Shown here one piece after another: positions 7,649-46,806 of a stretch of DNA of 64,000 nt (the stretch's first letter is position 1; each line of letters opens with the position of its first letter). The notes under the pieces were generated by a model. The model was given only the letters and a program-made list of their open reading frames with translations, was not told where the DNA came from and searched no databases. Source of the stretch: Bacillota bacterium (lineage in GTDB: Bacteria > Bacillota > Clostridia > Christensenellales > Pumilibacteraceae); contig DXHT01000001.1 in assembly GCA_019113265.1 (NCBI GenBank), positions 1,375-65,374 of the forward strand, given 5' to 3'. A program made the translations under genes and the position numbers.

Positions 7649-8575
7649 ATGAAAGAAAACTCGGTAAAAAACTTTTTTCTGAACGTGCTTAAAGGCGCGC
7701 TTATGGGCATCGCGCTCATTATTCCCGGCTTTTCGGGGGGAACGGTAGCGGTCGTTCTCGGCATTTACTACGGGCTCGTAAGCGCGGTGTCGGGACTGTT
7801 CCGCCACTTTTCCAAGAACTTTCTGTATCTGCTCCCGTTTGCCATAGGCATGGTGCTTGCCGTCGTCGCGCTCATCGTTCCGATAAGCGCGGCGCTCGAA
7901 TATCTGCCTTTGCCGACGATATGTCTGTTTGTCGGACTGATGCTGGGCGGAGTGCCTCCCATTGCGGCGGAGGCGGGCAAGCCTAATAAGTTCGCATACG
8001 TCGCGGCTTTTATAATAGCGTGCGCCGTCGCCGTAGGGCTGTGTTTCATACCCGCGCTCGGCGATGCGGACAGGTCGGCGTCTCCCACGGCGGGAACGTA
8101 CTTTTCGCTTCTCGGCGTGGGCTTTACGGGAGCGTGCGGCTTTGTCGTTCCGGGGATATCCGGCTCCATGATACTCATGGTGCTCGGGTATTACAACTAC
8201 ATACTCGGCGCGGGCAGGGAACTGCTCTCGCTGACGAACGTCGGAACGAACATACTGATAATACTCGTGTTTGCAGTGGGAGTTATCATAGGATTTTTCG
8301 TCATATCCATGATAATGAAAGCACTGCTGACGAGGTACAAGCGCGGGACTTACTACGCGATACTCGGGTTTATCGCGGGTTCGGTGTTCACGCTGTTCTA
8401 TCAGCAGGCGGACTCGCTCATAAATCACTCGCTTAACGTTCCTCTTCAAGCGGTGCTTGCGGGGTTGCTGTTTCTTGTCGGAGCGGGCGCGTCGGGTCTG
8501 TTCTGCGTCTATGCGGAGCGCAAAAAGCGCAAAGATGAAGCGTTAAAAGAGGACGGAGGAGAAAATAAAGCGTAA
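7649..8575 (+). CDS. DUF368 family membrane protein (polyprenyl-phosphate transporter-like)
   Basis: 308 aa. Two copies of the DUF368 signature (IIPGFSGGTVAVVLGIY and VVPGISGSMILMVLGYY). Confidence 0.8.
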   Translation: MKENSVKNFFLNVLKGALMGIALIIPGFSGGTVAVVLGIYYGLVSAVSGLFRHFSKNFLYLLPFAIGMVLAVVALIVPISAALEYLPLPTICLFVGLMLGGVPPIAAEAGKPNKFAYVAAFIIACAVAVGLCFIPALGDADRSASPTAGTYFSLLGVGFTGACGFVVPGISGSMILMVLGYYNYILGAGRELLSLTNVGTNILIILVFAVGVIIGFFVISMIMKALLTRYKRGTYYAILGFIAGSVFTLFYQQADSLINHSLNVPLQAVLAGLLFLVGAGASGLFCVYAERKKRKDEALKEDGGENKA

Positions 8576-8691
8576 TGCCGCGCGAAATATGACGTTTAAT
8601 GTTGACTAACGGCGGATAAATGTGGTAAACTAATTACGCTAAACGCGCCCGTCGTCGGAGTTGCCGACAGGCGTAACAAGGTTGTAATGAT

Positions 8692-9411
8692 ATGGGTAAA
8701 CCGTTTTATTATCTCAGCAAATGTCTGTACAGTCTGGGTCGGCCGTTATATCCGACCAAGGTCATAGGCAGGGAAAATATAATAAAGAAGGGGAAGTGCA
8801 TATACGCGTGCAATCATCTTTCCGCCGTGGATATACCGCTGACTCAGGTGCATATACCCGGGTACAGAAGATACATCGGAAAGGTGGACTTTACCGAGCA
8901 TAAGCTGTCCAAGTTCCTCCTCGGAAAGTTCGGCGTTATATTCATAGACAGGGATCGCCCCGCGCTGTCTACCATGCGCGAGATATTCAAGGTGCTTGAC
9001 AACGGGCAGATCCTGATATTTCCCGAGGGTACGCGCAACAAGGGCGACGCGAACGAAATGGGCGAGCTTAAAACGGGACTCGCGCTGTTTGCGGCAAAGA
9101 GCGGCGCGCCCGTCGTTCCCGTACTGCTGTACCGTCGTCCCAAGGCTTTCCGCAAGAACTACATGTATATAGGCAAGCCGATAGACATCATAGATAAAAA
9201 GGGGCGTATGCCGAGCGCGGCGGATGCGGAAGCGATAACCGCGCGCTACGCGTACGAGTTTGCAAAATTGCGCATTCTTCTGCGCGACTATGTGGAAAAC
9301 AAAAGGTGGAAAAAGAAGAACAAACTCAAAGAGGGGGAGAAACCGCCCGCCCTTATAGCGTTCGAGGCGCAGAACGAAATGCCTGCGCTCACGGCTGCGG
9401 GAGAACAGTAA
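8692..9411 (+). CDS. plsC: 1-acyl-sn-glycerol-3-phosphate acyltransferase
   Basis: 239 aa with acyltransferase HX4D motif (NHLSAVD) and FPEGTRN motif. Confidence 0.8.
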   Translation: MGKPFYYLSKCLYSLGRPLYPTKVIGRENIIKKGKCIYACNHLSAVDIPLTQVHIPGYRRYIGKVDFTEHKLSKFLLGKFGVIFIDRDRPALSTMREIFKVLDNGQILIFPEGTRNKGDANEMGELKTGLALFAAKSGAPVVPVLLYRRPKAFRKNYMYIGKPIDIIDKKGRMPSAADAEAITARYAYEFAKLRILLRDYVENKRWKKKNKLKEGEKPPALIAFEAQNEMPALTAAGEQ

Positions 9412-9415
9412 GAAT

Positions 9416-10438
9416 ATGATGAAGATCATAGTGGACGTATTCAGCGGCGACGATCCGAAAGCTCTGATACGCGGAACGGCGGCTGCCGTCAACGTATATC
9501 CCGACGTGCATTTCATAATGCCGGGAGATCCGACCTGTCTCGAACGCGAGCTTGCGGAGTGCGATTACGACAGATCCCGTCTCGAAATTCTCCCCGCAAG
9601 CGAGATAATAGGTAACGACGAATCCCCGACTATGGCGATACGTCAGAAGCGCGATTCCTCTCTCGTGCGCGGAGCGGCACTTCTGCGCTCCGATCCCGAA
9701 GTGGGCGGAATGATAAGCGCGGGCAGTACGGGCGCGATACTGTGTTGCGGAATATTCGTCGTAGGGAGATTGCGCGGCATAGATCGTCCCGCTCTCGCTC
9801 CCGTTCTTCCGACGGTAAACGGCGGCAACGTGTGCCTTATAGACTGCGGAGCGAACGCGGACTGCCGTAGCGAATATCTCGCACAGTTCGCCCTTCTCGG
9901 GACGAGCCTCATGCGGACGCTGTGTAAGGTGGACGATCCCAGAGTCGCTCTCGTAAATGTAGGCGTAGAGGGTCATAAGGGCAATATGCTCACGTCGCAG
10001 ACGGCGGCGCTCCTCTCGGAAATGCCCGTAAATTTCGTGGGCAACATGGAAGCGCGCGACGCGCTCAGCGGCAAATACGACGTGCTCGTATGCGACGGGT
10101 TCGTGGGTAACGTCCTGCTTAAAAGCATAGAGGGAACGGCGGCGAACGTGGCGAGCGAAATGGCGGAGATACTGCGCCGCAAAATGCCGGGAGGCGCGGC
10201 GGAAGAACTGATCGCGGAAGCGGCGCACGAAGTCATGCGCAATTACGACTACAACTCATACGGCGGAGCGTACCTGCTCGGTTGCCGCAAGCCGATAGAG
10301 AAGATACACGGCGCGTCGAACGAGCGCACCATTCCGTACGCTGTGGGGCAGATGCGTTCTATGATACTCGCGGGTCTGACAGAGAGCATAGCGTCTCAGC
10401 TGGAAGAGATGTCGCGCGGGCACGGCGAGACGCGCTGA
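9416..10438 (+). CDS. plsX: phosphate acyltransferase PlsX
   Basis: 340 aa. KIIVDVFSGD start, GSTGA motif and DGFVGNVLLK motif typical of PlsX. Confidence 0.9.
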   Translation: MMKIIVDVFSGDDPKALIRGTAAAVNVYPDVHFIMPGDPTCLERELAECDYDRSRLEILPASEIIGNDESPTMAIRQKRDSSLVRGAALLRSDPEVGGMISAGSTGAILCCGIFVVGRLRGIDRPALAPVLPTVNGGNVCLIDCGANADCRSEYLAQFALLGTSLMRTLCKVDDPRVALVNVGVEGHKGNMLTSQTAALLSEMPVNFVGNMEARDALSGKYDVLVCDGFVGNVLLKSIEGTAANVASEMAEILRRKMPGGAAEELIAEAAHEVMRNYDYNSYGGAYLLGCRKPIEKIHGASNERTIPYAVGQMRSMILAGLTESIASQLEEMSRGHGETR

Positions 10439-12898: not shown

Positions 12899-14906
12899 AA
12901 ACAATCAGACGGGAGTGATGCCCGAAGGTTTCGACGCGAGCGAAATAGAGGACGCGAAGACCCTCAAAAAGATGTTGCGCGAGCATAAGAAGAAGCAGCA
13001 GGCGGGTCCCCGCACAAAGGTGTTCCGCCGCATACTCGGGTACATTTTCAGATATTACAGGGCGCGTTTCATACTCGTCGTCATATCCATCATAATAGGT
13101 TCGATAGGAACGGCTATGATCCCCGTGATACTGACGCTGCTGACGAGCACCTATATCGAGCCGTCCACGCTGGGCGGCGACGGAGTTCTGCCGCTATGGA
13201 AGTTCCTCGTCATTGCCGCCGCGCTGTATATCGTCGCGGTATCGTTCTCGACGACGTATAACGTGCTCATGGCGCGGATAGGGCAGGGCGTGCTGTACCA
13301 TATAAGACGGGATATGTTCGTCAATATGCAGAAGCTTCCCATAAGCTATTTCGACAGACACCTTTCGGGCGATATAATGAGCGTATACACCAACGACGTG
13401 GACGCGTTGCGCCAATTCATAAGTCAGACGCTTCCTCAGCTGATAATAGCGGTGGTGACGCTTACCGCACTCATAATAATAATGCTTTATTACAGTCTGT
13501 GGCTGCTGCTTATAGTGCTTGCCGTCGTGGGCGTGATGATACTTGTCGTTACGAAAGTGGGAGGAGCGTCCTCGCGCTACTTCATTCTCCAACAGACCGC
13601 ACTCGGCAAAGTGGACGGATATATAGAGGAGTCCATGCACGGGCAGAAGGTCATTAAGGTGTTCTGCCACGAGGAAGAGGCGAAAAAGGAGTTCGACGAG
13701 AAGAACGACGCGCTCTGCCGCCATGCGACTTCCGCGAACACATACGCAAACGTGCTGATGCCCGTTTTGCAGAACATAGGCAACATCCTTTACGTCATAA
13801 TCGCGGTAGTCGGATCGCTCATGATAGTGCTCGGCGCGACCAACATAGGTCTTGGCTCGATAGGCACGACGGATCTCAGCAGCTATACCTACCTCATCGC
13901 CGTCGTCGTCGGATTCCTGTCCATAGCCAAATCGTTCACTCAGCAGATAGCGACCATATCCCAGCAGATAAACTTCGTCGCCATGGCAAAGGCGGGCGGT
14001 AACCGCATATTTGCGATAATGGACGAAAAGCCGGAAGAGGACAACGGTTACGTAGAACTCGTTTGGGCTAAGCGCACGGCGGACGGCGGCGTCGAACCCA
14101 GCGACACATACACCGGTCTTTGGGCTTGGAAACACCCGCATAAGGCGGAAGGCACGGTCACATACGTCGAACTCAAAGGCGACATAGAGATGCACGACGT
14201 CGACTTTGCGTACGTCCCCGGAAAGACCGTTCTTCACGACGTCACGCTATACGCCAAACCCGGTCAGAAAGTGGCGTTCGTTGGCGCGACGGGCGCGGGC
14301 AAGACGACGATAACCAACCTCATAAACAGGTTCTACGACATCGAGGACGGCAAGATCCGTTACGACGGCATAAACATTAACAAGATAAAGAAGCCCGATC
14401 TGCGCCGCTCCCTCGGAATAGTCCTTCAGGATACCAACCTGTTCACGGGAACGATAAAGGACAACATAAGATACGGTAAGCTGGACGCGACGGACGAGGA
14501 GATAGTCGCTGCGGCGAAACTCGCCAACGCGCACGACTTCATCATGCGCCTGCCCGACGGTTACGATACCGTTCTCGAATCGGACGGCGCGAACCTCTCT
14601 CAGGGTCAGCGTCAGCTCATATCCATAGCGCGTACGGCGTGCGAGAACGCACCCGTCATCATTCTCGACGAGGCGACGAGCTCCATAGACACGCGCACCG
14701 AACAGCTCGTGCAGGACGGCATGGATCAGCTGATGAACGGCAGAACGGTGTTCGTCATAGCTCACAGGCTGTCCACGGTACGCAATTCCAACGTGATAAT
14801 GGTGCTCGACCACGGCAGGATAATCGAGCGCGGCACGCACGAACAACTGCTCGAAATGAAGGGAACGTATTACAAACTGTATACGGGCGCATTCGAGCTC
14901 GAATAA
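12879..14906 (+). CDS. ABC transporter permease/ATP-binding protein (partner half-transporter)
   Basis: 675 aa. TM domain, Walker A GATGAGKTT, signature LSQGQRQL, Walker B VIILDEA. Overlaps the upstream ABC gene. Confidence 0.9.
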   Translation: MNMPSLKNNQTGVMPEGFDASEIEDAKTLKKMLREHKKKQQAGPRTKVFRRILGYIFRYYRARFILVVISIIIGSIGTAMIPVILTLLTSTYIEPSTLGGDGVLPLWKFLVIAAALYIVAVSFSTTYNVLMARIGQGVLYHIRRDMFVNMQKLPISYFDRHLSGDIMSVYTNDVDALRQFISQTLPQLIIAVVTLTALIIIMLYYSLWLLLIVLAVVGVMILVVTKVGGASSRYFILQQTALGKVDGYIEESMHGQKVIKVFCHEEEAKKEFDEKNDALCRHATSANTYANVLMPVLQNIGNILYVIIAVVGSLMIVLGATNIGLGSIGTTDLSSYTYLIAVVVGFLSIAKSFTQQIATISQQINFVAMAKAGGNRIFAIMDEKPEEDNGYVELVWAKRTADGGVEPSDTYTGLWAWKHPHKAEGTVTYVELKGDIEMHDVDFAYVPGKTVLHDVTLYAKPGQKVAFVGATGAGKTTITNLINRFYDIEDGKIRYDGININKIKKPDLRRSLGIVLQDTNLFTGTIKDNIRYGKLDATDEEIVAAAKLANAHDFIMRLPDGYDTVLESDGANLSQGQRQLISIARTACENAPVIILDEATSSIDTRTEQLVQDGMDQLMNGRTVFVIAHRLSTVRNSNVIMVLDHGRIIERGTHEQLLEMKGTYYKLYTGAFELE

Positions 14907-14921
14907 GCGGAATCGAAAAAT

Positions 14922-14964
14922 CCGCGCGTAAAAGTCACTTTTACGTGCGGAGTTTTGTTTTTTT
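14922..14964. terminator. intrinsic terminator, probably bidirectional
   Basis: Hairpin CCGCGCGTAAAAGT-CAC-TTTTACGTGCGG followed by AGTTTTGTTTTTTT. The reverse strand also has a T-run after the stem. Confidence 0.7.
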
Positions 14965-15148
14965 CGGGCGATCAAAGATCGTCCGCGTCCTGTTCGGGCT
15001 CGCCCCAGTGCGACACACCCGTATACGCCCCCGAAGGGTCGTTTTTCGAAACCTTGCGCTTTTTCTCTTTCATATTAGAAGTATGCGCGGCATAGCCGTA
15101 AGTTATGCCCGATACTAAACGCGGACGACCGCGCATAAACTCATATAT

Positions 15149-15403
15149 ATGAGTATGTTCGACGACATAAGGCGGTGCGCCGCCGCGGGAATGAGTTACG
15201 GGTACTGCGCCGTACTTTTCGGCGGAGGCGCGGCGTATATAGACGGGATAACGCGCGTTATGGAAATAGGCGGCGAAAGAGTGGTATTCGCGTCAGAAAA
15301 GCGCATAATAACTCTGAGCGGAGAAGATCTCACGGTTACTCGCTTAGGCGACGGCGATGCGATAGTGCGAGGCAAAATATACGCATTCGGGGAGGAGAAA
15401 TGA
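15149..15403 (+). CDS. yqfC: YabP/YqfC family sporulation protein
   Basis: 84 aa. YabP-like beta pattern (ITLSGEDLTVTRLGDGDAIVRGKIYAF). Position directly upstream of yqfD-phoH as in Bacillus/Clostridia. Confidence 0.7.
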   Translation: MSMFDDIRRCAAAGMSYGYCAVLFGGGAAYIDGITRVMEIGGERVVFASEKRIITLSGEDLTVTRLGDGDAIVRGKIYAFGEEK

Positions 15404-16470
15404 TAAGACTGCGTATAGGTTGCGACGCGGTAAAAGCAGTCCGCGCACTTCGGGAAGTAGAGCTCAGCGACATAAAAACGGGCGGGGAGTATACCGAAGT
15501 CGGCATAAAACGAAAAGATTTGCATAAAGCTATTGCAATTTGTGACCAAAGGTGTTATAATTACATAATTACAGACTCAGGTCATGCCCGATTGCGTCGA
15601 ACGCTTATCGTGAGACTGCCCCTTCTTATAGCGTCCGTACTTGCCGCCGCAATTCTGTTCGTCACGAACGCGTTCGTATGGCGGGTGGAGATAACGGGAG
15701 CGGACGGAGCCGCGGCGCAACTCGTTCGCGCGGTGCTCGAAAGGGAGGGCGCGCGACCGGGAGTGCTGAGATCCGCCGTAGACGAGAGGAGTGCGGAGCG
15801 CGCGCTCGTAGCACTGCGCGGAATTGCCGCCGCAAGTGTCAGGACGGAGGGAAGCGTTATCGTCGCCGAGGTCTTGCCCGCACCGTCGTACGGCGGGCTT
15901 GCCGAATATTCGGACAGGCTGCTGAGCGGGTACGACTGCGTTATAACCCGAGTCGTCGCGGACAGCGGCACGCCCGTAGTCAAAGAGGGCGACGTGGTAA
16001 AAAAAGGCGACGTTCTCGTCGAGGGCAAGCAGTACAATACGGCGGACGGCTCGGAAGCGGGTACGGTCGCCGTGAGAGGCAGGGCATACGGCATAGTGAC
16101 GTTCACGTTTTCCTCTCCCGTGACCGAAGACGGCGCGCCGCGTCGTACGGGCAGGAGCGAAACGCACACGTCCGTCGGCATATTCGGGCTTAAAGCGGGC
16201 GCATCCGAAAGCCCGTACGAATATTACGAAAGCTCAACGGAGCGCGCGCGGCTTTATCCTCTGCCCGTAGAAGTGGTGCGTACGACGTATTACGAACTTG
16301 ACAGGGCGGATTTCGGTGAAGAGGCGGAGCAGTTTGCCGCGGAAAAAGCGGACGAACTGCTACGGACGTACGGAGTGCCGTTTGAAATGCGGACGTCCGT
16401 AAAGGAGCGCGGCGGCGTCGAAGTAATGACGATGTACTTCACCGGAGAAATATGCGTGGGAGAGATATGA
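15400..16470 (+). CDS. yqfD: sporulation protein YqfD (stage IV)
   Basis: In-frame ATG at 15400 (ATGA overlap with the yqfC stop) chosen over the track start at 15175. One TM segment followed by VWRVEITGADG, typical of YqfD. Confidence 0.7.
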   Translation: MIRLRIGCDAVKAVRALREVELSDIKTGGEYTEVGIKRKDLHKAIAICDQRCYNYIITDSGHARLRRTLIVRLPLLIASVLAAAILFVTNAFVWRVEITGADGAAAQLVRAVLEREGARPGVLRSAVDERSAERALVALRGIAAASVRTEGSVIVAEVLPAPSYGGLAEYSDRLLSGYDCVITRVVADSGTPVVKEGDVVKKGDVLVEGKQYNTADGSEAGTVAVRGRAYGIVTFTFSSPVTEDGAPRRTGRSETHTSVGIFGLKAGASESPYEYYESSTERARLYPLPVEVVRTTYYELDRADFGEEAEQFAAEKADELLRTYGVPFEMRTSVKERGGVEVMTMYFTGEICVGEI

Positions 16471-41960: not shown

Positions 41961-42008
41961 AAGCACCGCAATGCGGCAGATTGCCGCATTGCGGTGCTTT
42001 ACGTTTTG
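41961..42008 (+). terminator. intrinsic terminator
   Basis: 18-bp perfect stem AAGCACCGCAATGCGGCA/TGCCGCATTGCGGTGCTT, followed by TACGTTTTG. Confidence 0.75.
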
Positions 42009-42110: not shown

Positions 42111-42139
42111 TTGACAATCGCGCGCAAATGTAGTATTAT
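42111..42139 (+). promoter_or_regulatory. promoter of the tRNA-Leu gene
   Basis: TTGACA (42111-42116), 17-nt spacer, TATTAT (42134-42139), about 28 nt before the tRNA 5' end. Confidence 0.65.
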
Positions 42140-42167: not shown

Positions 42168-42250
42168 GCGGTTGTGGCGGAATTGGCAGACGCGCAAGAC
42201 TAAGGATCTTGTGGGCGACCGTGCAGGTTCAACTCCTGTCAACCGCACCA
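42168..42250 (+). tRNA. tRNA-Leu, encoded CCA, anticodon read by hand as AAG
   Basis: 83 nt. Acceptor GCGGTTG/CAACCGC. Leu-type D arm GGCGGAATTGGCAGACGCGC. Anticodon stem CAAGA/TCTTG with loop CTAAGGA. 11-nt variable region. T arm GCAGG-TTCAACT-CCTGT. 3' ACCA. Confidence 0.9.
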
Positions 42251-42252
42251 TG

Positions 42253-42285
42253 AAAAACGGAGCACAGACAAGTGCTCCGTTTTTC
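42253..42285. terminator. intrinsic (bidirectional-type) terminator directly after the tRNA
   Basis: AAAAACGGAGCAC-AGACAA-GTGCTCCGTTTTT, with an A-tract and a T-tract flanking a GC-rich stem. An identical copy lies at 46508-46540. Confidence 0.8.
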
Positions 42286-42304
42286 GCGGTTGACAGGAGT
42301 TGAA
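42286..42304. repeat. inverted 19-nt copy of the tRNA-Leu T-loop/3'-acceptor segment
   Basis: GCGGTTGACAGGAGTTGAA is the exact reverse complement of 42228-42246. The same 19-mer recurs at 46541-46559. Confidence 0.9.
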
Positions 42305-42408
42305 GCTTAAGAAGGCGCGAGGGAACAGAAAACACACTGTGTTTTCCCCGAGCGGGCAAGCAATCTGCGATTGCGCAGCCGACGGATTTTCCGTTAGGGA
42401 AAATCCGT

Positions 42409-42426
42409 CTCCTGTCAACCGCACCA
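42409..42426 (+). repeat. direct 18-nt duplicate of the tRNA-Leu 3' end (att-like remnant)
   Basis: CTCCTGTCAACCGCACCA equals 42233-42250. It ends exactly where the AT-rich DNA begins. Confidence 0.9.
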
Positions 42427-42429
42427 CGA

Positions 42430-42445
42430 ATAACGTAAGTTGAAC
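42430..42445. repeat. left subterminal inverted repeat of the insertion
   Basis: ATAACGTAAGTTGAAC, 3 nt inside the left boundary. Exact reverse complement at 46477-46492 and a direct copy at 46458-46472. Confidence 0.85.
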
Positions 42446-42454
42446 TGATAAGGT

Positions 42455-43027
42455 TTGATTTGCGTTATTTTTTTTTTTTTTACTTTTACCTATGATAGTA
42501 AGTTGCACACGGAAGAATCATTTCGTAAATGCCTGAAGAAAACACTTTCCAATTTCTGCTCCCGAAAGGGCTGGAAATATATCGGCGTTTGGGAACGTTC
42601 GCCCGCAAAAGAAAGACTGCATTTTCATAGTTTGCTTTATATTCCCGACGGCACGATGCTGGAGTTTATGTTTGAGGACAATACATATAGTTTCACTGAG
42701 CACAAAAGGCAAATAACGCTTCAGAATATGTACTTCAAGGAAAGGTTTGGAAGAAAAGACTTCGAGGCGATAGAAGATCAGACAGGACTTCATAAAGCAA
42801 TGCATTACATAATGAAGTATATTGAAAAGTCCGGAGAGAGAATTGTCTACTCCAAAGGACTTCCGCAATTCATCATTTCGGACATTATGGACGACGACGT
42901 TATCTGTCCCATCGGCATGGAAGATCAGAAGCTTCTTCTCTTTGACGACTTTTTGTGTTGGGACGAAGGCTGTTTGATAGGTCCGGTATCGCCCGAAGTG
43001 ATAAGACAACTGCGCACCGTAAACTAA
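42455..43027 (+). CDS. HUH-superfamily rolling-circle Rep-like protein (two-tyrosine type); start uncertain, possibly decayed
   Basis: 190 aa. Motif 1 FTFTY (aa 9-13), motif 2 LHFHSLLY (HUH, aa 55-62), motif 3 YIMKYIEK (Y-x-x-K-Y-x-x-K, aa 118-125). TTG start without a usable SD. A T14 tract encodes FFFF at codons 6-9. Confidence 0.6.
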   Translation: MICVIFFFFTFTYDSKLHTEESFRKCLKKTLSNFCSRKGWKYIGVWERSPAKERLHFHSLLYIPDGTMLEFMFEDNTYSFTEHKRQITLQNMYFKERFGRKDFEAIEDQTGLHKAMHYIMKYIEKSGERIVYSKGLPQFIISDIMDDDVICPIGMEDQKLLLFDDFLCWDEGCLIGPVSPEVIRQLRTVN

Positions 43028-43059: not shown

Positions 43060-43240
43060 AACACGGCACAGGCGGTTAAAGGCGAAAATCGGCAAGCGGT
43101 TTAGCGGCGATTTCGACTTCCGTCGCGCGTTTTTATTTGGTTTATTTTTTCGGGTTTTAGTTGTGGGGCGTGTGCTTGCCTCGGCGGAGCGTAGCGGCGC
43201 CGACTTGTATAAGTCAAGCACCCGCCACAGTGCCATTTTT
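43060..43240. other. GC-rich dyad-symmetric non-coding block inside the AT-rich element (candidate replication origin or structured RNA)
   Basis: Imperfect 12-bp stem GGCGTGTGCTTG/CAAGCACCCGCC (43167-43178 / 43215-43226) encloses TCGGCG...CGCCGA and the segment GACTTGTATAAGTC. A T-rich tract lies at 43130-43150. GGCACAGGCGG (43065-43075) can pair with CCGCCACAGTGCC (43222-43234). Confidence 0.35.
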
Positions 43241-43342
43241 CTAAAATTGATTTGTTATATAATGAGTTGTGGCAAATTGATTTATTACAATTTTACTTGA
43301 TTTAGAGCGAGATAAACTTTGCTATAAATTAAATCGCATTAT

Positions 43343-43370
43343 TGCTTTCCGCACCCGATAATGCTATAAT
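43343..43370 (+). promoter_or_regulatory. promoter of the large orphan gene
   Basis: TTGCTT (43343-43348), 16-nt spacer, TGcTATAAT extended -10 (43362-43370). Confidence 0.6.
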
Positions 43371-43395
43371 ATAGGTGCAAAGGGGTAATTTTACA

Positions 43396-46300
43396 ATGGA
43401 CAAATTAAATGCGTTAGTTATTCAAAAAGATATTAAGAATTATATTAAACAATTACAAAAAAAGGAATTGTATTTTTTTGGTGTGCCCGAAGAATTAAGG
43501 TTAAATTCTTCGATAGTTGCGATTGAAAGAGAATTGGGTATACGAAAAACTATTAAAAAGGGGTTCAACATCATAAATAATACTTTTTTTGTTGAAGAAA
43601 TAGTATTGCATAAAGAATGGAACGATGAAATTGTAGAAAAAACAATAACCACGCTTTTTTCTTGTTTTGAAACTTATTTTGAATTTTTACAAGGCGATAT
43701 TTATGAGAATGCTTGCTACTATAAATACAATTTTACACAAGAAGAAATAGATAAATATTCTATTGATATTTTAAAAATCAATTTTAGAAGCTTTATTCAA
43801 TATGATATTGATAATTTTACATTAGCATTTTCAGAAAACGAAATTTTACAATATAATGAAGCGGAAAAACGTAAAATTAATTTAAAAAAATGGTTAGTAA
43901 AGTTTAATAATTGCCAAACTTATGAAGAGTTTAAGCAAGTATATTCAAATTTAAAAAAATCAGCTTTTTCAAATAATTTAAATTTCTTTTTATTCAATTT
44001 CATTTACGGAAACAACGAAAACGTATTTAATATAATTACACAATTTTTAAACGATAACAATATATTTAATTTTGAAAAAGTTTTATGCTTAAAATTTAAT
44101 TCATACGAAGTTTTAAACGCATATGATAACAGTAAATTTTATTCATCTGCTACCGCTAAAAAATGGAAAGACAGATTAAAATTTTTTATTGAAAAACTGG
44201 AAAATAAAGAAATAGCATTTACTACTATTATATATTTTGATAAAGACTTGCATTTTTTCGTATGTCGTGAAATTGGTAAGCCTAAAAATTATCAAAGCAT
44301 TAATGGCTATATTCCTACTTTGGTAGACGCTCATAGGTATTTTGAAACGTTTGACGAATTAGCTAAATTTTTAGATTATGACTTATCAAATTGTGATTTA
44401 TCGCAAGCGATTTTACCTGATTTAGAATTATCAAAATATAAGATTAATGAACAAACGAAATTGCCGATAAATTTTGAGAAAAATTTTACATACAATGTAA
44501 CCAAAATATTTGATAGGTTTAAAAATCATTTTTTAGTTAAACAAATTTGGTTGAATGAATTTGGAAAAATAATCAAAGAATATAATCATACGTTTAATTA
44601 TTTTTGTGATTACGTCCATTTTCTAAAAAATGATTTGTCTGATGCCGATTTATTGTTCTGCGACGGCTTATCTAATGTAATTGATTTTAGTGATTTAAAT
44701 TTAACTAATGCAAAATTAAAAAGTAACATTCTCGATAAACTTGGTGTTAGATATGAACTAATAAGCAATACAGTTGAAAGTTTTGGTCAAACAAAGGCTA
44801 ATGAATTAGAAACAGTAAATGCTTTGATTGCAGAAAGAGAACAGTTAAGTTTTGAAGAAACTCTCAAATGTCAAAAAATTTATTATATTACAGATTTACA
44901 TTTATTACACAGATTGCACAATGCAAATTGCAAAAGCTATTATGATAAATTTTATGTGTTTCAAAAAATAATAGATAGTCTTTTAAACTCTGTTCACAGC
45001 TGGGAAAAGAACATAATTCTTATAGGCGGTGATACCTCTTCTGATTTTGCTTTTTTTGAATTGTTTGTTAAACAATTAAGGACTTCTATTGATGAAAGAA
45101 AATTAGATGTGCAAGTTATTTTTACTCTTGGGAACCACGAATTATGGGATTTTGTCGGAGATAAATTTAATGAATTTGGTGGCTCTAATTTTGATAATAC
45201 CAAAAGAATAACATTTGATGAAATTGTGGATAAATACAGAAAAGTTATTACCGAAAATAAAATGTATTTGCTACAAAATAATCTTATATTTAAATATGAT
45301 TGGAATAGTATTGAAGAGATTAGTGCGGAAGAGATTAAAAATTTATCACAAACGCAACTTTTAAATCGTCTTAAAAAAGCAAGGCTGATTTTATTTGGCG
45401 GATTAGGATTTGCTGGTTGTAATAATGAATTTAATGCAAATCAGTTAATTTATAGGCTTGCAATAAATAGGCAACAAGAAATTGAAGAAAGCAAGAAGTT
45501 TGAAGAACTATATGAAAAAATTTGTGCAGACTTATCTGATAAGCGAGTAATTATATTTACACATATGCCACAAAAAGATTGGTGTTCAAGCAACATGCAA
45601 GTTAAAGGTTTTATTTACGTTAATGGGCATACTCACCGAAATTACTTTTATGATGATGGCGATTACAGATTATATTCTGATAATCAAGTGGGGTATTATC
45701 AAGAAAGGTGTAAATTAAAATACTTTTATTTAGAAGATGATTACGATTTGTTTGCAACCTATGAAAATGGAATTTATGAAATATCAAGAGAAGATTATGT
45801 TGATTTTTATATCGGTAAAAACATAAATATGGACTTTTTTAGAGATTTTGATAAACTCTATATGTTAAAAAAGAATAGATACTATTTGTTTATTTTGCAA
45901 AGCGCAAACGGTAATTTGAATATTCTAAATGGTGGTGCAATAAAGCGGTTAGCAAATAATACAGTACATTACTATTATGAGAATATGGATAGAGTTATTT
46001 CTTATATTAAAACGCCATTAGATAATTTCAGCGATTATCAAAAACAAATTTCTGACGAAATCAAAGCTATCGGGGGTAGCGGTAATATTCACGGCGCGAT
46101 TATTGATATTGATTTTTTTAATCATATTTATGTGAACCCGATTGATTTGAGTGTAACCGCATATTGGGCAAGTGATATTGTAAATAAAATCATATTTGAA
46201 GATACTCCAACGCTTTTAAAATGTAATTGTCCGCAATTATACGCAAATTATTTAAAGCAAATTGAAAGCAAATCAAAAACAGCTCTTGTTTTAAATAAAT

Positions 46301-46446
46301 CTTCGATAGTTAGACCGCCACAATTTTATTTAGATACCGATATATATGGGGCTTCAAGAGAAATTAAGAAAATGCAAAAGTTAAGCTCAAATATTTTAAG
46401 TTTATGGGTTGAGCCTGAAAATAAAAAAATTGAGCAATGGCAATAA
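43396..46446 (+). CDS. orphan ~1016-aa protein: N-terminal unknown region with pentapeptide-like repeats, central calcineurin-type metallophosphoesterase domain, C-terminal unknown region
   Basis: ATG at 43396, 10 nt after AAGGGG, preferred to the GTG at 43375. All five phosphoesterase motifs are present in order: ITDLH, IGGDTSSD, LGNHELW, IFTHMP, NGHTHRN. There are three copies of an F..F.EF/YV.FL..DLS.ADL-type module. Confidence 0.8.
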   Translation: MDKLNALVIQKDIKNYIKQLQKKELYFFGVPEELRLNSSIVAIERELGIRKTIKKGFNIINNTFFVEEIVLHKEWNDEIVEKTITTLFSCFETYFEFLQGDIYENACYYKYNFTQEEIDKYSIDILKINFRSFIQYDIDNFTLAFSENEILQYNEAEKRKINLKKWLVKFNNCQTYEEFKQVYSNLKKSAFSNNLNFFLFNFIYGNNENVFNIITQFLNDNNIFNFEKVLCLKFNSYEVLNAYDNSKFYSSATAKKWKDRLKFFIEKLENKEIAFTTIIYFDKDLHFFVCREIGKPKNYQSINGYIPTLVDAHRYFETFDELAKFLDYDLSNCDLSQAILPDLELSKYKINEQTKLPINFEKNFTYNVTKIFDRFKNHFLVKQIWLNEFGKIIKEYNHTFNYFCDYVHFLKNDLSDADLLFCDGLSNVIDFSDLNLTNAKLKSNILDKLGVRYELISNTVESFGQTKANELETVNALIAEREQLSFEETLKCQKIYYITDLHLLHRLHNANCKSYYDKFYVFQKIIDSLLNSVHSWEKNIILIGGDTSSDFAFFELFVKQLRTSIDERKLDVQVIFTLGNHELWDFVGDKFNEFGGSNFDNTKRITFDEIVDKYRKVITENKMYLLQNNLIFKYDWNSIEEISAEEIKNLSQTQLLNRLKKARLILFGGLGFAGCNNEFNANQLIYRLAINRQQEIEESKKFEELYEKICADLSDKRVIIFTHMPQKDWCSSNMQVKGFIYVNGHTHRNYFYDDGDYRLYSDNQVGYYQERCKLKYFYLEDDYDLFATYENGIYEISREDYVDFYIGKNINMDFFRDFDKLYMLKKNRYYLFILQSANGNLNILNGGAIKRLANNTVHYYYENMDRVISYIKTPLDNFSDYQKQISDEIKAIGGSGNIHGAIIDIDFFNHIYVNPIDLSVTAYWASDIVNKIIFEDTPTLLKCNCPQLYANYLKQIESKSKTALVLNKSSIVRPPQFYLDTDIYGASREIKKMQKLSSNILSLWVEPENKKIEQWQ

Positions 46447-46457
46447 TGAATAAAAAA

Positions 46458-46492
46458 ATAACGTAAGTTGAATTTGGTTCAACTTACGTTAT
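46458..46492. repeat. perfect 15-bp-stem palindrome at the right end of the insertion
   Basis: ATAACGTAAGTTGAA-TTTGG-TTCAACTTACGTTAT. It is preceded by an A-run, so on the minus strand it reads as a hairpin plus T7 (terminator-like). It is followed by the 10-nt palindrome TGGTGCACCA. Confidence 0.85.
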
Positions 46493-46499
46493 GGGTGGT

Positions 46500-46575
46500 G
46501 CACCATGAAAAACGGAGCACAGACAAGTGCTCCGTTTTTCGCGGTTGACAGGAGTTGAAGCTTAAGAAGGCGCGA
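46500..46575. repeat. right copy of the 76-nt perfect direct repeat
   Basis: Identical to 42245-42320. It is followed by a longer variant of the GAAAACA...TGTTTTC hairpin, the conserved 35-nt block (46616-46650) and a third, diverged hairpin. Confidence 0.95.
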
Positions 46576-46806
46576 AGCGTTAAGAAAACAGGACTGAATG
46601 TCCTGTTTTCAGCGTAGCGGGCAAGCAATCTGCGATTGCGCAGCCGACGGGGTTTCCGAAGAAAAACCCTTTTTCTGTCGGATAAAATGAAATCAAAAGC
46701 ATAAAGACCGCCGGAATTTGACCATCCAAACATGCGTTGCGAGGGTCATTTCCATATTCCGCAAATTTCAGGTATAAAATGCCGATGAGAGTCAAAAATA
46801 CCGCAT

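Follow-up and report, generated by a model that had tools for sequence, protein, structure and literature searches.

What could a metallophosphoesterase of more than a thousand residues be doing on an AT-rich island beside a tRNA gene? The question is raised by a 64,000-nucleotide stretch from a Bacillota bacterium of the Pumilibacteraceae (assembly GCA_019113265.1, contig DXHT01000001.1, positions 1,375 to 65,374 of the forward strand), which was analysed as a whole and is called the window here. Within this window of ~55% GC, an island of 25–30% GC at ~42.4–46.5 kb is filled to ~75% by one gene for a calcineurin-like phosphoesterase, a share that agrees with the three quarters estimated in an initial annotation of the DNA. 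That annotation saw an orphan enzyme carried as the sole cargo of a small mobile element and proposed a role in defence or counter-defence. The answer we favour, at a probability of about one half, is that the protein would act as a single-protein effector of genetic conflict, aimed at phages or at competing mobile DNA.

The phosphoesterase gene is real, and in this respect the initial annotation stands, on the strength of the homologues and of the open reading frame (ORF) call. The ORF listing places it on the + strand at 43375–46446, with a GTG at 43375 as its mechanical start; this start is replaced by the ATG at 43396, which is the true start and is shared by all homologues and by the gene calls of other assemblies. 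The gene therefore covers 43396–46446 (+) and encodes 1016 amino acids followed by a stop codon. The exact sequence of the window protein has been deposited as HIW03133.1, under the name ‘metallophosphoesterase [Firmicutes bacterium]’.

Both profile and motifs assign the protein to the calcineurin-like metallophosphoesterase superfamily (PF00149). Residues 494–748 score 37 bits (E 6e-9) with the Pfam Metallophos model, whose cut-off is 21.5, and the same model is matched by 34 of 38 homologues. In an alignment of these 38 members, whose identity reaches down to 44%, the five motifs are invariant and occur in the canonical order that the initial annotation had read (D500/H502, G545-D546, G579-N580-H581-E582, T722-H723 and G744-H745-x-H747). 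Judged from these motifs, the catalytic site is probably intact. We place the domain at 44866–45735 (+; residues ~491–780), based on the Pfam match, the invariant columns and structural matches to Mre11 and CD73. The AlphaFold model of the full protein, built from the 38-member alignment, has a pLDDT of 84 and a pTM of 0.73, and a Foldseek comparison of this model with the PDB returned only weak matches to phosphoesterase folds: the 5'-nucleotidase CD73 as the top match (E 0.03), Thermotoga maritima Mre11 (4nzv_B; probability 0.98, E 0.046, root-mean-square deviation 5.9 Å), Rv0805 (E 1.1–2.0) and WipA/WipB. Against the viral library BFVD, the model matched only generic phosphoesterases of giant viruses and phages. 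Profile searches of the PDB gave nothing significant, the nearest entry being Mre11 at E 0.58, and sequence searches of NCBIfam, PADLOC, PHROGs and the PDB found generic phosphoesterase matches and nothing further.

The best conserved region of the protein is the C-terminal domain (CTD; 45736–46443, +; residues 781–1016). Indeed, the mean pairwise identity rises from 44% at the N-terminus to 55% in the phosphoesterase domain and 60.5% in the CTD, which carries an invariant motif rich in His and Asp, GGxGxIHGxIxDID..NHIYxNP. Modelled alone, the CTD reaches a pLDDT of 87, and the search of the PDB with Foldseek gave no fold match for it (best E 1.6). The earlier observation that the regions on either side of the catalytic domain resemble nothing recognisable was borne out, since searches with Pfam, NCBIfam, PADLOC, PDB sequences and Foldseek all came back empty for both regions.

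The CTD is found on another protein, however, and the partner it has there is informative. A 569-residue protein encoded on plasmids of Limosilactobacillus reuteri (WP_302500205.1 on pLr03; L094:1870-3579, where numbers with the prefix L denote the loci used for comparison) shares the CTD at 27% identity (E 3e-24), while its N-terminal 254 residues match the PADLOC candidate family PDC-S61 (E 9e-82) and a PD-(D/E)xK model. Because the CTD also occurs on a PD-(D/E)xK nuclease, it appears to partner interchangeably with two domains that cleave phosphodiester bonds. The gene for this protein is divergent from a helix-turn-helix (HTH) gene and a gene for a 260-residue DNA methyltransferase; the similarity of this methyltransferase to type III Mod models is confined to their first ~250 positions. 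A relative of ~1100 residues, present in 190-kb contigs of IMG/VR, carries DUF4116 repeats ahead of its phosphoesterase domain and CTD, and its gene adjoins one for a YhcG PDDEXK protein. Since the core recurs with DUF4116 repeats in place of the N-terminal modules, the phosphoesterase domain and the CTD appear, from these sequence comparisons, to form the constant unit of the family and the N-terminal repeats to be exchangeable. Otherwise, the CTD profile search found mostly fragments. The one protein that combines a PLDc_2 domain with the CTD (P0344) was considered as a further architecture and was set aside as an apparent truncation or chimera.

The N-terminal region contains three copies of a module, at 43516–43731 (residues 41–112), 44200–44430 (residues 269–345) and 44431–44745 (residues 346–450), all on the + strand and delimited with hhalign and AlphaFold; the stretches compared by hhalign were residues 40–112, 265–345 and 358–432. 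The three-copy pattern F..F.EF..FL..DLS.ADL that had been noticed by eye is a true internal repeat: the modules are homologous in pairwise hhalign comparisons (E 3e-6, 7e-8 and 8e-9), and in the AlphaFold model every copy folds into three strands and a helix, after which comes a short turn region. In module 1 the helix is followed by GDIYENACYY, module 2 ends in pentapeptide-like turns (DLSNCDLS), and module 3 is followed by ~7 pentapeptide-like units (DLSDA DLLFC DGLSN ...). Modules 1 and 2 are acidic. The comparison of these modules with pentapeptide-repeat caps holds as a likeness and not as family membership, since the pentapeptide-like runs are short (~5–8 units), the Pentapeptide profile (PF00805) scores 12.2–14.1 bits against a cut-off of 20.2 and reaches E≤0.05 in only 4 of the 38 members, and no pentapeptide-repeat structure was among the Foldseek matches of the full model. 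A search of 5.8 billion proteins with the N-terminal profile yielded nothing but fragments of this family; other architectures were not among the matches.

Far from being an orphan, the phosphoesterase belongs to a large, unstudied family that is horizontally exchanged among gut Firmicutes on mobile elements. At least 266 collinear proteins of ~1000 residues, with identities from 99% to 43%, came out of a word-indexed search. When 1.84 billion cluster representatives were scanned exhaustively with HMMER, 1,384 clusters matched at E≤1e-3 and 759 still did at E≤1e-30; the clusters are defined at 50% identity, and 1,384 is a lower bound on the family. With one genome taken per species, a pattern scan confirmed relatives in 267 of 185,579 species, again a lower bound, with a patchy spread over Lachnospiraceae, Oscillospiraceae, Christensenellales, Clostridium, Erysipelotrichaceae and other Bacilli. 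The family is found in none of 50,697 phage genomes, gives only 9 matches among 2.9 million viral contigs, and has no full-length member among 72,556 plasmids. The gene has ~30% GC regardless of the GC content of its host, and lies more than 5 points below its flanks at 46 of 63 loci. No neighbour is conserved across 77 loci, the largest cluster of neighbours being TnpV (10 of 77), and frameshifted or deleted copies exist (L015 and L043 are frameshifted). We attribute these features to horizontal transfer, because the low GC content in any host, the patchy occurrence among species, the lack of a conserved neighbour and the decayed copies all point the same way. One such decayed copy (L122:6001-7955), which comprises the N-terminal 482 residues and a 187-residue fragment and adjoins a tRNA-Ser gene, is fixed in one species, in which it was seen on at least 24 contigs.

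The carriage on mobile DNA that the initial annotation had supposed is supported directly by near-identical copies of the gene elsewhere. A cassette that extends from ~300 nt upstream of the phosphoesterase gene to the hairpin behind it (43088–46501, +) is 98.6% identical in at least five other genomic contexts, all metagenomic (blastn comparison with L001, L002, L126, L127, L130 and L133). In L126–L132, the cassette is preceded by genes for a 501-residue serine recombinase and an intact 294-residue HUH rolling-circle Rep (PF23343) and by a 45-residue ORF (for example at L126:3337-10066), and the insertion point of these elements is the very 3' end of a tRNA-Thr or tRNA-Leu gene. The cassette ends 49 nt short of convergent tRNA-Thr genes in L127–L129 and at tRNA-Leu(CAG) in L001 and L002. 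The phosphoesterase gene is thus cargo at the tRNA-proximal edge of integrative elements. What lies beyond the cassette differs among these contexts: a second serine-recombinase element with an Old/AriA-like ATPase in L126 and L132; a second serine-recombinase element with a cyclic oligonucleotide-based antiphage signalling system (CBASS; cyclase 3e-59, NucC 1e-74) and IetA/IetS in L130 and L131; and AbiLi/AbiLii (3e-78 and 2e-22) directly downstream in L133, where a tyrosine integrase lies upstream.

We considered Rep as a regular partner of the phosphoesterase and rejected it, since Rep was found with the closest clade only and with none of 80 genome loci. A scan of viral contigs for Rep found none, and no relatives of the element's Rep were found in 72,556 plasmids. 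A full-length relative of Rep with 46% identity is encoded at L112:4962-6026, on a 57-kb faecal phage contig that carries no annotation (MT835493.1).

Taken together, the probably intact catalytic site, the constant core with exchangeable repeats, the foreign GC content, patchiness and decay, the carriage at the edges of elements, and the near-identical copies adjoining four bona fide defence systems (CBASS, Iet, AbiL and the Old/AriA-like ATPase) are more in keeping with a conflict effector than with the rival explanations below, and are the reasons why we read the protein in this way. If this reading is correct, the phosphoesterase domain and the CTD would be the effector end, cleaving phosphodiester bonds, and the more variable N-terminal repeats may serve to inhibit the enzyme or to detect an invader. 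The substrate would be nucleic acid rather than free nucleotides, at odds of roughly 60:40, mainly because the CTD can partner a classical nuclease. The defence role proposed in the initial annotation gains support from genomic context, above all from that of the 98.6% identical cassettes; what the enzyme cleaves, how it is regulated and whether it protects its host are predictions built on the observed architecture, motifs, mobility and co-location with defence genes.

Several observations weigh against this reading. First, the link to defence comes from adjoining cargo and is guilt by association: ~7% of neighbours across the family match defence models, and genes 5–10 kb away score alike, although these lie in the same islands and are not a clean background. 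Second, many homologues sit among ordinary genes, for instance between a LytTR regulator and its kinase, or near a beta-lactamase or HxlR gene. Third, PADLOC-DB v2.0.0 yields no family at E≤1. Fourth, no domain of the protein is basic (the CTD has an isoelectric point of ~6.6), so that charge gives DNA binding no support. Finally, the similarity to Mre11 is not significant, by Foldseek or by profile, and no SbcC/Rad50 partner accompanies the gene: SMC_N is encoded by only 2 of 122 immediate neighbours and by none in the window island.

The best of the rival explanations, though we consider it unlikely, is that the enzyme defends by depleting or degrading free nucleotides (dNTP/dNDP, NAD-derived or cyclic) and so aborts infection. 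The 5'-nucleotidase CD73 is the top structural match of the full model, the lack of a basic domain speaks for this substrate as well, and the GNHE form of motif III also occurs in nucleotidases. Moreover, calcineurin-type effectors that hydrolyse dADP are documented in the PUA-Cal-HAD defence system (bioRxiv 10.64898/2026.01.15.699771), and calcineurin-type proteins have been predicted to act as nucleotide phosphodiesterases in conflict systems (PMC7159879). Against this explanation, the window protein has neither a PUA sensor nor a HAD partner (the sole HAD match, at E 0.049, falls short of the cut-off), and no neighbour is conserved across loci. We favour a nuclease over nucleotide depletion because its nearest neighbours are Mre11-like and because the CTD is shared with a PD-(D/E)xK nuclease, which points to nucleic acid.

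Alternatively, and with a lower probability still, the gene may serve the mobile element itself, by processing DNA for transfer, replication or integration, by addiction or exclusion, or as a homing-like nuclease that spreads the cassette near tRNA genes. The position of the cassette invites this idea, because it always lies at the edge of the element and abuts a tRNA 3' end (Thr, Leu-CAG or Leu-AAG). Several lone copies of the gene in several species are bounded by direct repeats of 26–188 nt with no integrase, some relatives have DUF4379 zinc ribbons, which elsewhere accompany the DNA-binding modules of homing endonucleases, and tRNA-Leu genes are prominent near family members. The intact elements, however, have recombinases that would account for the targeting of tRNA genes, and most members are unlinked to Rep (as noted above) or to a serine recombinase, which is present at only 9 of 80 genome loci. 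The boundaries formed by direct repeats are also heterogeneous, and the protein is far bigger than known homing nucleases.

Two sets of observations bear on these tRNA-linked copies. Among the 33 tRNA genes that lie within 10 kb of family members at the 80 genome loci (L011–L090), nine are tRNA-Leu, with six anticodons; from typical tRNA gene sets, a share of ~10% is expected. At L033, a degraded XRE gene and a phosphoesterase homologue lie between two copies of a segment that contains an entire tRNA-Leu(CAA) gene and its promoter region (8986–9173 and 12960–13147; 188 nt, 98% identity). The right copy of this repeat begins within the last codons of the phosphoesterase ORF, which counts against the element-serving explanation.

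A specific form of this explanation, which we regard as a long shot, is a self-propagating nuclease gene whose product, through its phosphoesterase domain and CTD, would cut at or near tRNA 3' ends, notably those of tRNA-Leu, the gene then being copied into the break. Self-propagation would explain a lone AT-rich gene beside tRNA genes in many species, direct repeats of host sequence and the lack of a recombinase of its own.

It is very unlikely that the enzyme acts in counter-defence, destroying immune signalling nucleotides (cyclic oligonucleotides or gcADPR) and so easing the establishment of the element in new hosts, as the initial annotation had also suggested. The fold does include cyclic-nucleotide phosphodiesterases, with Rv0805 among the weak structural matches, the gene is carried by mobile elements, and one of its contexts adjoins a CBASS operon. 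However, a position beside CBASS on the same island suits co-defence better, and the family is essentially missing from phages and viral contigs (the counts are given above), although phages are where such enzymes are known. The protein is also very large, has sensor-like repeats, and is encoded by a fixed chromosomal gene in several species. Least probable of all is that the enzyme is a common accessory or housekeeping phosphatase that takes no part in genetic conflict. The plain database name and several metabolic neighbourhoods could be cited for this idea, which is at odds with the patchy taxa, host-foreign GC content, lack of conserved synteny, frequent decay and location on mobile elements.

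We return to the conflict-effector reading and to the window copy, which differs in its state from the copies on intact elements. What remains in the window is one decayed part of a larger integrative element with a serine recombinase and Rep; we read the island in this way because its Rep gene is truncated at the 5' end, because a recombinase is absent, and because the same cassette is found in larger intact elements. The Rep remnant (42455–43027, +; PF23343, Pfam E 5e-11; 55% identity to the Rep of L001) aligns to residues 113–294 of the intact 294-residue protein and keeps the FTFTYD, HFH and YxxKY motifs, and it lacks an ATG and a ribosome-binding site. No homologue of a serine or tyrosine recombinase is encoded within the 64-kb window. 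Consequently, the description of the phosphoesterase as sole cargo is true of the decayed copy only, and even there the truncated Rep accompanies it; the intact relatives are larger, and a small element built around one cargo gene is not what this locus preserves.

The boundaries of the island retain traces of its history. The tRNA-Leu(AAG) gene beside it (42168–42250, +; ARAGORN, and Rfam tRNA at 54.9 bits) provides its last 6 nt, together with ~150 nt downstream, to a segment that is duplicated on either side of the island. The two direct-repeat copies, each holding the tRNA 3' end and the downstream region, lie at 42245–42393 and 46500–46658; their first 76 nt are 100% identical and the next 43 nt 95% identical, with 88% identity over 159 nt. 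The left end of the island (42409–42445, +) consists of an extra fragment of the tRNA-Leu 3' end (CTCCTGTCAACCGCACCA) followed by half of a terminator hairpin. At the right boundary, we read an inverted remnant of a tRNA 3' end (GGGTGGTGC; 46493–46501, −), and in L001, L127 and L133 the equivalent position runs on into tRNA-Leu(CAG) or tRNA-Thr. A 25-nt inverted repeat pairs 42421–42445 with 46477–46501 (92% complementary), and the two ends as a whole (42409–42445 and 46457–46505) are inverted copies of a tRNA 3' end and a terminator arm, each flanked by ACC. Joining both ends of the island would give a long palindrome centred on TGGTGCACCA. This end structure and the ~150-nt duplication do not fit a simple attL/attR scheme of integration. 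A pattern scan of metagenomes for the empty site gave no match, and a look-up through both flanking genes found only contigs that contain the island or end at the tRNA gene. The identical remnant is present at the identical site in two other samples.

Signals for expression are found next to the gene. An extended −10 promoter element, TGCTATAAT, can be read directly at 43362–43370 (+), as the initial annotation had it; a consensus scan found no −35 box upstream of it, and a ribosome-binding site, AAAGGGG, was likewise read at 43379–43385 (+). On the 3' side, repeat finding identified a perfect 15-bp hairpin (46458–46492), which in related contexts serves as the terminator shared with a convergent tRNA gene. 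The idea that hairpins insulate the gene on both sides thus holds for the 3' side and fails for the 5' side, where the leader of the phosphoesterase gene folds no more strongly than shuffled sequence (z −1.3). Among RNA elements of the island, Rfam matched the tRNA alone. Upstream of the tRNA-Leu gene lie a perfect 18-nt terminator-like inverted repeat (41961–41999) and, behind it, a near-consensus promoter (42111–42139; TTGACA and TATTAT spaced by 17 nt).

Across the family, the recurrent neighbours are XRE-type HTH regulators, large serine recombinases and Mob relaxases, and in one sub-clade a capH-like XRE regulator lies directly upstream of the phosphoesterase gene. The defence neighbours of distant homologues include TIR-PP2C, MADS (mad2/3/8), type I restriction-modification, JetD, HEC-05 and PDC candidates. 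At L012, the gene on one flank of the homologue (7722–9632, −) encodes 637 residues that include five treble-clef zinc fingers of the DUF4379 type together with NUMOD1 and I-HmuI-like DNA-binding modules, and in which no nuclease domain could be recognised; the gene on the other flank (13237–15747, −) encodes an 837-residue fusion of TIR and a PP2C phosphatase. In an uncultured Clostridium, an ORF of 2369 codons (L048:2750-9859) lies directly upstream of a phosphoesterase homologue.

If the defence reading is true, the family would be a widespread and uncatalogued single-gene immune system of Clostridia and Erysipelotrichia in the human and animal gut, and the defence toolkit would gain a calcineurin-type phosphoesterase effector with two modules of unknown fold. 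If it fails, the family still ranks among the larger unannotated families of multidomain enzymes on Firmicute mobile DNA. The CTD, which is joined to a phosphoesterase in one architecture and to a PD-(D/E)xK nuclease in another, is a concrete new domain for study, and the serine-recombinase/Rep elements, with the gene beside CBASS, Iet and AbiL, look like a useful place to seek more defence cargo of gut Firmicutes.

How, then, does the window protein compare with systems already described? As a mobile unit, it resembles a known class, the integrative and mobilizable elements (IMEs) of Firmicutes, together with the decayed forms that lack a recombinase (cis-mobilizable elements, CIMEs), as described in the Guedon/Payot literature. 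Like IMEs, the intact relatives have genes for a large serine recombinase and a rolling-circle Rep; they too are inserted at tRNA 3' ends, with their cargo at the edge. The window copy has flanking repeats and no recombinase, like a CIME; it differs from both in that its ends are inverted copies of a tRNA end and terminator and that ~150 nt of downstream sequence is duplicated. As an enzyme, it has the same five-motif dimetal phosphoesterase core as Mre11/SbcD, and T. maritima Mre11 is its best neighbour among solved structures and PDB sequences. Unlike Mre11/SbcD, it has neither a detected Mre11 capping domain nor a Rad50/SbcC partner gene, and it adds an N-terminal repeat region of 490 residues and a CTD of 236 residues with no known fold. 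With the class III phosphodiesterases (CpdA/Rv0805), it has no specific similarity beyond the motifs, the Rv0805 matches being as weak as stated (E 1.1–2.0) and accompanied by no PDB sequence match. The short A(D/N)LXX-like runs after each module and the acidic modules 1 and 2 recall the pentapeptide-repeat proteins (PF00805), which include DNA mimics of the MfpA/Qnr type, whereas the runs of ~5–8 units score below the threshold and no such fold was returned by Foldseek.

Among defence proteins, the calcineurin-CE effectors of PUA-Cal-HAD systems (bioRxiv 10.64898/2026.01.15.699771; PMC7159879) are similar in combining a calcineurin-type effector with a separate sensing module in a mobile, defence-linked setting. 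The window protein, in contrast, is a single polypeptide with unrelated N- and C-terminal domains, has no PUA domain or HAD partner, and has no detectable specific relationship to these effectors in sequence or fold. The PDC-S61-type protein WP_302500205.1 shares the CTD with its HGxIxDxD..NHxYxNP motif and lies in a restriction-modification-like setting on a plasmid; it differs in its PD-(D/E)xK catalytic domain, its length of 569 residues and the lack of N-terminal repeats, and PDC-S61 itself is only a candidate defence family. The initial annotation knew of no described system with this architecture, and no family of PADLOC-DB v2.0.0 matched. Phosphoesterase effectors and single-protein sensor-effector systems are already known, and what is new is this architecture, with its two regions of unknown fold.

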